Origin: Escherichia coli
GTDB lineage: Bacteria; Pseudomonadota; Gammaproteobacteria; Enterobacterales; Enterobacteriaceae
Direction: 5' to 3' (one strand)
Assembly (NCBI RefSeq): GCF_003334815.1
Contig: NZ_QOWO01000061.1
Length of the DNA: 10,623 nt
Position numbers: made by a program. Shown here in pieces: positions 3,001 through 6,000 of the stretch (its first letter is position 1; the number at the start of each line of letters is the position of its first letter).

Positions 3001-6000
3001 TATTTACTGATCCGTTCTCAAGTATTGATACAGGGTTTCGCGACTGATTCCGAATTCACGAGCAAGCTTGGTCTTTTGCTCGCCAGCCTCGACACGTTGG
3101 CGCAGTTCGGCAATACGCTCAGACGACAGGGATTTCTTCCTGCCACGGTAAGCCCCGCGTTGCTTGGCGAGCGCAATACCCTCGCGCTGACGCTCGCGGA
3201 TCAGGGCGCGCTCGAACTCGGCGAACGCGCCCATCACCGAGAGCATCAGGTTCGCCATCGGAGAGTCTTCGCCAGTAAAACTGAGGTGTTCCTTGACGAA
3301 TTCGATATGCACGCCGCGTTGTGTCAGCGTTTGCACGATCCGGCGCAAATCATCGAGATTGCGCGCCAGGCGATCCATGCTATGCACCACCACGGTGTCG
3401 CCGGTGCGGGCGAAGCTTATCAGCGCTTCCAGTTGCGGACGCTTGACATCCTTGCCGGATGCCTTGTCGCTAAAAGCGCGATCAACCTTGACGCCTTCCA
3501 GTTGCCGTTCCGGGTTCTGGTCGAAGGTGCTGACCCTGATATACCCAATGCGCTGTCCAGTCATGGAATTCCCTGCAAAATGTCAGGGAAGACTCTATGA
3601 CCTTCAACGAGATATGTCAATAAATTCAAAATTCAATCCTATCCTGACGCAATTTACACATGGCATCTGACATCAGGTTAGGGTATGCCTCAACCTGACG
3701 GCGGCGAATCACAAGCGTCCGGTTTGACGCTGGTTTCGGTCGCAGTGCTGGCCCGCGCCTGGAAGCGCTGATAGCACTCCAGCCCGCAGAAATGCTCCAC
3801 GTACTCGGCCCCTTCCGGCGTGAAGGCGGCATCGAGCGGGATTTCCTTGCAGCACACGCAGCAACTGGTGCTCGGTTCATTGGCGTTCATGGTGGTGTTC
3901 CTCCATTGGTTGACGAAGCCGACGAAGGCCGCCGCCGGCATCGGCCTGGCGAACAGGAAACCCTGCACCGTGTCGCAACCCGCCTGCCGCAACCACGCAA
4001 GGCAGTCGGGTGTTTCCACACCCTCGGCTACCACCTCCATTGTCGTTTTCAGAAGACGGCTGCACTGAACGTCAGAAGCCGACTGCACTATAGCAGCGGA
4101 GGGGTTGGATCCATCAGGCAACGACGGGCTGCTGCCGGCCATCAGCGGACGCAGGGAGGACTTTCCGCAACCGGCCGTTCGATGCGGCACCGATGGCCTT
4201 CGCGCAGGGGTAGTGAATCCGCCAGGATTGACTTGCGCTGCCCTACCTCTCACTAGTGAGGGGCGGCAGCGCATCAAGCGGTGAGCGCACTCCGGCACCG
4301 CCAACTTTCAGCACATGCGTGTAAATCATCGTCGTAGAGACGTCGGAATGGCCGAGCAGATCCTGCACGGTTCGAATGTCGTAACCGCTGCGGAGCAAGG
4401 CCGTCGCGAACGAGTGGCGGAGGGTGTGCGGTGTGGCGGGCTTCGTGATGCCTGCTTGTTCTACGGCACGTTTGAAGGCGCGCTGAAAGGTCTGGTCATA
4501 CATGTGATGGCGACGCACGACACCGCTCCGTGGATCGGTCGAATGCGTGTGCTGCGCAAAAACCCAGAACCACGGCCAGGAATGCCCGGCGCGCGGATAC
4601 TTCCGCTCAAGGGCGTCGGGAAGCGCAACGCCGCTGCGGCCCTCGGCCTGGTCCTTCAGCCACCATGCCCGTGCACGCGACAGCTGCTCGCGCAGGCTGG
4701 GTGCCAAGCTCTCGGGTAACATCAAGGCCCGATCCTTGGAGCCCTTGCCCTCCCGCACGATGATCGTGCCGTGATCGAAATCCAGATCCTTGACCCGCAG
4801 TTGCAAACCCTCACTGATCCGCATGCCCGTTCCATACAGAAGCTGGGCGAACAAACGATGCTCGCCTTCCAGAAAACCGAGGATGCGAACCACTTCATCC
4901 GGGGTCAGCACCACCGGCAAGCGCCGCGACGGCCGAGGTCTTCCGATCTCCTGAAGCCAGGGCAGATCCGTGCACAGCACCTTGCCGTAGAAGAACAGCA
5001 AGGCCGCCAATGCCTGACGATGCGTGGAGACCGAAACCTTGCGCTCGTTCGCCAGCCAGGACAGAAATGCCTCGACTTCGCTGCTGCCCAAGGTTGCCGG
5101 GTGACGCACACCGTGGAAACGGATGAAGGCACGAACCCAGTGGACATAAGCCTGTTCGGTTCGTAAGCTGTAATGCAAGTAGCGTATGCGCTCACGCAAC
5201 TGGTCCAGAACCTTGACCGAACGCAGCGGTGGTAACGGCGCAGTGGCGGTTTTCATGGCTTGTTATGACTGTTTTTTTGGGGTACAGTCTATGCCTCGGG
5301 CATCCAAGCAGCAAGCGCGTTACGCCGTGGGTCGATGTTTGATGTTATGGAGCAGCAACGATGTTACGCAGCAGGGCAGTCGCCCTAAAACAAAGTTAAA
5401 CATCATGAGGGAAGCGGTGATCGCCGAAGTATCGACTCAACTATCAGAGGTAGTTGGCGTCATCGAGCGCCATCTCGAACCGACGTTGCTGGCCGTACAT
5501 TTGTACGGCTCCGCAGTGGATGGCGGCCTGAAGCCACACAGTGATATTGATTTGCTGGTTACGGTGACCGTAAGGCTTGATGAAACAACGCGGCGAGCTT
5601 TGATCAACGACCTTTTGGAAACTTCGGCTTCCCCTGGAGAGAGCGAGATTCTCCGCGCTGTAGAAGTCACCATTGTTGTGCACGACGACATCATTCCGTG
5701 GCGTTATCCAGCTAAGCGCGAACTGCAATTTGGAGAATGGCAGCGCAATGACATTCTTGCAGGTATCTTCGAGCCAGCCACGATCGACATTGATCTGGCT
5801 ATCTTGCTGACAAAAGCAAGAGAACATAGCGTTGCCTTGGTAGGTCCAGCGGCGGAGGAACTCTTTGATCCGGTTCCTGAACAGGATCTATTTGAGGCGC
5901 TAAATGAAACCTTAACGCTATGGAACTCGCCGCCCGACTGGGCTGGCGATGAGCGAAATGTAGTGCTTACGTTGTCCCGCATTTGGTACAGCGCAGTAAC

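Follow-up and report, generated by a model that had tools for sequence, protein, structure and literature searches.

PcW, P2 and the IntI1 R32_H39 integrase in an In2/Tn21 region of Escherichia coli

The stretch of DNA analyzed here, referred to as the window, comprises 10,623 nucleotides of Escherichia coli (NCBI RefSeq assembly GCF_003334815.1, contig NZ_QOWO01000061.1) and carries a class 1 integron with its integrase gene intI1, the cassette promoter Pc and a single cassette, aadA1. Judged by its sequence, the window is the tnp-proximal half of transposon Tn21 with the integron In2. Our reading, held with high confidence, is that Pc is present as the weak variant PcW, that aadA1 would be transcribed mainly from a second promoter, P2, that the integrase keeps the R32_H39 allele, and that intI1 is most probably free of control by the repressor LexA. 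The features themselves and the identity of In2 were observed directly; for promoter strengths, integrase activity and the escape from LexA control, we rely on published work on the same motifs and the same allele. This configuration of In2/Tn21 is already known as a textbook element, and at the sequence level the window is the same throughout as the published PcW-P2 / IntI1 R32_H39 combination of Jové et al. 2010 (PMC2791841). The Pc/P2 set-up governs the strength of cassette expression and, through the overlap of Pc with intI1, also the reshuffling of cassettes by the integrase, a principle that matters for the spread of resistance and was established in 2010-2011. Its confirmation in a classical In2/Tn21 example adds annotation and no new biology.

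The identity of the stretch was derived from a base-by-base comparison with plasmid R100 (NC_002134.1), which agreed with the window over all 10,623 bases except for one indel. The window shares with In2 of Tn21 on R100/NR1 the gene order, the boundary repeat IRi, Pc, P2, the integrase promoter PintI1, the attI1 site, aadA1, the 3' conserved segment and IS1326. Gene order (tnpA-tnpR-(tnpM)-intI1-aadA1-qacEdelta1-sul1-orf5-IS1326), IRi and the terminal inverted repeat together place it in Tn21 and In2, with the IRt end and the mer operon falling outside the window. The names In2 and Tn21 follow from the identity to R100 and from what is generally known of that plasmid. Full identity was found to NZ_LT985321.1 (plasmid RCS85_pI of E. 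coli ECOR 3), and R100 and a dozen other plasmids match 100% of the window length at 100.0% identity. At least 80% of the 10.6-kb region, with the single aadA1 cassette, is present in 132 plasmid records, and the best matches listed, R100 among them, have 100.0% identity.

Pc and the codons it shares with intI1

Pc is located at 5141-5169 on the plus strand, with the −35 hexamer TGGACA (5141-5146), a 17-bp spacer (TAAGCCTGTTCGGTTCG, 5147-5163) and the −10 hexamer TAAGCT (5164-5169). The pattern TGGACA-N17-TAAGCT occurs once in the window, and hexamers and spacer match the PcW entry of the published catalogue exactly (Table 1, PMC2791841). The −10 hexamer is preceded by TCG (5161-5163), hence an extended −10 of the TGN type is lacking, and the C at 5162 sets the site apart from both PcW-TGN-10 and PcW-TAN-10. 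As befits a class 1 platform, Pc points outward from within intI1, which occupies 4243-5256 on the minus strand. The standing of the site as a promoter derives from its identity to an experimentally characterized sequence and not from the hexamers alone. Direct comparison with the catalogue ruled out the rarer variants PcH1, PcH2, PcW-TGN, PcW-TAN, P2m1 and P2m2.

The intI1 gene translates into a class 1 integron integrase of 337 amino acids. It was assigned by the NCBIfam model PRK15417 (799.5 bits, cut-off 435, residues 1-337 of 337) and also by TIGR02249 for integron integrases (508.6 bits), and it is annotated as WP_000845048.1 in R100 and RCS85_pI. Residues 31, 32, 38 and 39 read L, R, V and H in the translation, which corresponds to the R32_H39 allele (Table 3, PMC2791841). 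Among solved structures, VchIntIA (2A3V, E = 9e-88) is the closest, and its K21 and H28 align with R32 and H39 of IntI1, respectively. This alignment agrees with the published placement of residues 32 and 39 in an attC-binding helix (PMC2791841).

Codon 32 (CGA) is the reverse complement of 5161-5163 and codon 39 (CAC) is the reverse complement of 5140-5142. Promoter and codons thus share their nucleotides: residue 32 is set at the TGN position and residue 39 by the second base of the −35 hexamer, and a PcW without TGN must encode R32_H39. The pairing was present in 25 of 25 tabulated sequences, by construction. It is a coding necessity and not an independent association; treating it as a statistical association was rejected because the shared nucleotides fix it.

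The sequence-only reading of this stretch had proposed a weak Pc built from these two hexamers, with a 17-bp spacer and no TGN, and its coordinates were correct to the base. Its statement that the Pc bases also code for R32 and H39 on the other strand was borne out by translation, and alignment of the two codons and the hexamers with the catalogued variants returned exactly PcW and R32_H39. The hexamers had thus not been miscalled, and published reporter data show a weak Pc for this variant when P2 is not counted (PMC2791841). Where the same reading spoke of PcW as "paired" with R32/H39, the co-occurrence holds, while the notion of two independently associated traits does not, owing to the overlapping code.

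P2, PintI1 and the split LexA box

The active form of P2 was found at 5260-5288 (plus strand) as a unique exact match in the window, with the −35 hexamer TTGTTA at 5260-5265 and the −10 hexamer TACAGT at 5283-5288. Its 17-bp spacer (TGACTGTTTTTTTGGGG) contains a GGG insertion at 5280-5282, and its −35 hexamer sits 119 bp downstream of that of Pc. The arrangement equals the catalogue entry TTGTTA/17/TACAGT with an unmutated −10, and is neither P2m1 nor P2m2 (Table 1, PMC2791841). For comparison, a survey of one genome per species, using a pattern in which all variable promoter positions were left free, returned 23 related loci. In 22 of these, the GGG is missing and the P2 spacer has the inactive length of 14 bp.

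The integrase promoter PintI1 occupies 5286-5314 on the minus strand, again as a unique exact match (−35 TTGCTG at 5314-5309, 17-bp spacer, −10 TAGACT at 5291-5286), and this layout agrees with the description in a 2022 review (PMC8876359). Its −10 hexamer and that of P2 overlap by 3 bp on opposite strands. A pattern search for the LexA box of PintI1 gave CTGT-N11-ACAG at 5269-5287 instead of CTGT-N8-ACAG; an intact CTGT-N8-ACAG box over the PintI1 −10, as in a PintI1 under LexA and thus SOS control, is lacking here. The half-sites lie 11 bp apart in the window, in R100 and in the one surveyed locus with GGG (L003, from Bradyrhizobium), but 8 bp apart in the 22 loci that lack it, because the GGG that creates P2 adds three bases.

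Jové et al. 2010 already noted that the LexA site is disrupted when P2 is created (PMC2791841). In the experiments of Cambray et al. 2011, LexA bound the intact site, and a lexA mutation relieved repression of this intact form alone (ratio 6.55; PMC3108266). For the same GGG insertion as in the window, neither LexA binding in an electrophoretic mobility shift assay nor LexA regulation of intI1 in reverse transcription polymerase chain reaction (RT-PCR) experiments was seen (PMC3108266). The insertion of that study came from pMUR050, where it likewise enables a secondary cassette promoter and splits the LexA site over PintI1; however, the intI1 copies of pMUR050 are inactivated, while the window has a full-length open reading frame (ORF) of 337 codons (PMC3108266).

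With regards to promoter strength, PcW was approximately 25 times weaker than PcS in a lacZ fusion of the same promoter motif, and the variants were ranked PcW < PcH1 < PcW-P2 < PcW-TGN-10 < PcS (PMC2791841). P2 alone was 7 times as strong as PcW, and the activity of PcW-P2 equaled that of P2 alone, so that PcW adds little (PMC2791841). The 2022 review likewise attributes approximately 90% of the transcription from PcW plus P2 to P2 and states that P2, unlike PcS, does not interfere with PintI1 (PMC8876359). That stronger Pc variants go with lower IntI1 excision is the finding named in the title of Jové et al. 2010: PcW and PcH1 both encode IntI1 R32_H39, which was 51 times more active in excision than R32_N39 and 336 times more active than P32_H39, at similar integration activities (PMC2791841). 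Excision was assayed between attC(aadA7) and attC(VCR), with ParaB driving the integrase gene and Pc silenced (PMC2791841).

Taken together, the following mechanism can be proposed for the window. PcW, which is weak and lies within the 5'-terminal part of intI1 in antisense orientation, would contribute little transcription. His39 is fixed by the G at the second position of its −35 hexamer and Arg32 by the C two bases ahead of the −10. The GGG insertion widens the spacing between TTGTTA and TACAGT from 14 to 17 bp and thereby creates P2, from which aadA1 would mainly be transcribed at an intermediate level, 119 bp downstream of Pc. With expression gained by way of P2, in place of a T in the −35 hexamer or a TGN mutation, the integrase stays R32_H39, presumably the most active allele in attC x attC excision here as in the published assay. 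As the GGG separates the LexA half-sites over PintI1, intI1 would no longer be repressed by LexA, and we infer that the window copy yields an excision-proficient integrase whether or not the SOS response is induced.

The link made in the sequence-only reading between PcW and a more active R32/H39 integrase is thus the published one, and its suggestion that P2 compensates for cassette expression is supported by the active P2 with its 17-bp spacer. Its description of a low-expression but recombination-proficient integron needs to be divided: the proficiency stands with R32_H39, but expression ranks as intermediate (third of five strength levels) instead of low. Escape from LexA control, which that reading did not contain, is the more important consequence for recombination.

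A different way of boosting PcW is found in integrons with PcW-TGN-10 and IntI1 P32_H39, which have the same −35 and −10 hexamers as the window. There, G replaces C at the counterpart of position 5162 and the promoter becomes approximately 15 times stronger, at the cost of R32 becoming P32 with a 336-fold lower excision, and the LexA box stays intact; the window, by contrast, keeps the C, and therefore R32, and uses P2 (PMC2791841).

Distribution of the variants and alternative readings

In the species survey, PcW alone was found at 13 of the 23 loci, PcH1 at five, PcW-TGN and PcS at two each, and PcW-P2 at one. The GGG therefore occurred once, on a PcW background, and residues 32 and 39 tracked the promoter bases in every case. 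The sole PcW-P2 locus (2496-4260 of L003, Bradyrhizobium sp. SSBR45G, NZ_BSCT01000004.1) is an In2-like fragment with a partial intI1 and aadA1, 99.94% identical to window positions 4684-6447 and located on a 360-kb contig of this soil alphaproteobacterium.

Among complete E. coli genomes, a 200-bp query (5141-5340) matched 3007 records in 2444 of 5426 genomes. The GGG form, counted as the band of at least 99% identity, which requires the GGG, made up 358 of these records (11.9%), and seven out of seven evenly sampled matches from this band were 100.0% identical to the window. The Pc/P2 configuration of the window is therefore common in E. coli. Variant-specific 30-mers, which together accounted for 3519 of 3565 places, gave 874 places for PcW without TGN and 829 for PcW-TGN, so that the two are about equally frequent. 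PcH1 was by far the commonest variant (1706 of 3565 places) and PcS was rare (110 places). As the genomes were not de-replicated, these counts depend on how successful individual elements such as Tn21 have been. In the 2010 catalogue, by comparison, PcW reached 41.7%, PcH1 28% and PcS 24.3%, and PcW-P2 without TGN accounted for 23 of 321 distinct integrons, equivalent to 7.2% of all and 17.2% of the PcW integrons (PMC2791841). The shift between E. coli and the catalogue may be due to a few successful elements.

Several points weigh against the proposed mechanism. A generic sigma-70 scan of 4900-5500 with a threshold of 9 of 12 consensus positions called no promoter, that is, neither Pc nor P2, each of which matches 8 of 12; as both lie below the threshold, the scan speaks neither for nor against them. 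The values for strength and activity come from cloned fragments and are applied to the window copy by inference. Moreover, the published excision assay used neither the aadA1 attC nor native integrase expression, and the non-interference of P2 with PintI1 is the statement of a review (PMC8876359). Finally, the array with its one cassette is unchanged across many plasmids, so that no sign of the high recombination potential can be seen here.

Of the competing explanations, the most probable one, although we consider it clearly less probable than not, concerns the meaning of the PcW-R32_H39 link. It could be a by-product of overlapping coding and ancestry, with the trade-off between expression and excision being neither selected nor functionally meaningful. 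The deterministic coupling, in which the same bases encode both traits, fits this explanation well, and so does the finding that PcW without P2 was the commonest form (13/23) in the mostly environmental genomes that represented their species. The proposed environmental ancestors, moreover, all carry PcW and R32_H39 (PMC2791841). However, the 51- to 336-fold differences in excision between the alleles are real biochemical effects (PMC2791841). In addition, the −35 T, the TGN and P2 are three independent routes to a stronger promoter, and that each of them is frequent in E. coli argues for selection on expression. The by-product explanation also touches the evolutionary reading and leaves the mechanism undisputed.

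An unlikely explanation is that In2 is frozen in practice, the integrase output from a weak PintI1 being too low or too costly, and that the Pc/IntI1 set-up is without present effect on cassette dynamics. The recurrence of the region with its single aadA1 cassette in the 132 plasmid records would be expected from a frozen element, and constitutive integrase expression is considered deleterious (PMC8876359). Against this stand the 23 distinct cassette arrays found behind PcW-P2 (PMC2791841), from which it follows that integrons with this platform have gained different cassettes, and the RT-PCR result that PintI1 in its GGG form is not regulated by LexA (PMC3108266). That the hexamers at 5141-5169 are merely a chance sigma-70-like match in coding sequence and no promoter can practically be dismissed, since, in spite of the 8 of 12 consensus positions and the silent scan, the sequence is identical to the experimentally characterized PcW (PMC2791841), its exact pattern appeared in 0 of 200 dinucleotide-preserving shuffles, and all class 1 integrons examined have the site conserved in this place.

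The aadA1 cassette and the surrounding Tn21 features

Downstream of PintI1, the recombination site attI1 adjoins intI1 and extends over 5330-5401 (plus strand), with the crossover core GTTAAAC, of the form GTTRRRY, at 5395-5401 on the first cassette boundary. Its left boundary, placed at 5330, is approximate. Other class 1 integrons with different cassettes cease to match the window at 5395-5398, which marks this position as the cassette junction, and their match in the 3' conserved segment restarts at 6250. The aadA1 cassette in between (5396-6250, plus strand) is the sole cassette and the target of P2 and Pc. It consists of the coding sequence at 5405-6196, assigned to AadA1 by NCBIfam with 597.6 bits (cut-off 587), and of the attC site at 6198-6256, which ends in the core GTTAGAT.

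Inside attI1, a short ORF encoding MLRSRAVALKQS was observed at 5361-5399 (plus strand), with GGAG upstream at 5349-5352. Its TAA stop codon spans the junction of attI1 and cassette, 6 bp before the aadA1 ATG at 5405. This ORF resembles the short ORF of attI1 that reportedly helps the first cassette to be translated.

The remaining gene families were likewise assigned by NCBIfam. The 3' conserved segment (6359-7539) holds qacEdelta1 at 6359-6706 (plus strand), a QacE-type small multidrug resistance protein that is named QacE delta 1 in the matching records, and sul1 at 6700-7539 (plus strand), which overlaps it and was assigned by the Sul1 family and record annotation. A GNAT protein (orf5) follows at 7667-8167 (plus strand). 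Further downstream, the IS21-family genes istB (8343-9128) and istA (9115-10620), both on the minus strand, belong to IS1326 according to the matching records. IS1326 istA extends off the right end of the window (10620-10623); in R100, an IS3-family element and truncated tniB/tniA follow. We take this IS3-family element to be IS1353.

On the other side, the window starts with the terminal inverted repeat of Tn21 (2-39), followed by the Tn3-family transposase gene tnpA (35-3001), the serine recombinase (resolvase) gene tnpR (3004-3564) and a tnpM remnant (3690-4304), all three genes on the minus strand. The labels tnpM for the ORF at 3690-4304 (minus strand) and orf5 for that at 7667-8167 (plus strand) are the ones in conventional use. 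The boundary of In2 within Tn21 on the intI1 side is formed by a 25-bp terminal inverted repeat (TGTCGTTTTCAGAAGACGGCTGCAC, 4041-4065, plus strand), for which we adopt the common name IRi. In 11 of the 23 loci, which are unrelated class 1 integrons, the match to the window starts at 4040-4041. The ORF of the tnpM region starts inside In2, crosses IRi and enters the Tn21 backbone, and only its backbone-encoded amino acids 77-138 resemble the C-terminus of an EAL-domain cyclic di-GMP phosphodiesterase. Presumably, In2 was inserted into an EAL-domain gene and left the 3' remnant.

The only unusual feature of the window, unrelated to the finding on Pc, is the indel mentioned above. Compared with In2 on R100 and with the Bradyrhizobium locus, one C is missing at 6222/6223, in the center of the aadA1 attC (GACGCCGCTTCG to GACGCGCTTCG). 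A 46-nt query across this position matched one of 72,556 plasmids, namely NZ_LT985321.1. Either a mutation private to this copy or an assembly error in a stretch rich in GC could account for the missing C. For the bottom strand, the predicted DNA hairpin is weakened by the deletion from −18.8 to −14.1 kcal/mol, with the outer R/L pairing kept. The most excision-active IntI1 allele outside SOS control combined with an unchanged array could hint at an unrecognized brake, either on IntI1 activity or on the excision of aadA1, and the deletion, with its hairpin weaker by 4.7 kcal/mol, might be a stabilizing change of this kind and not a sequencing error, an idea that we regard as very improbable.

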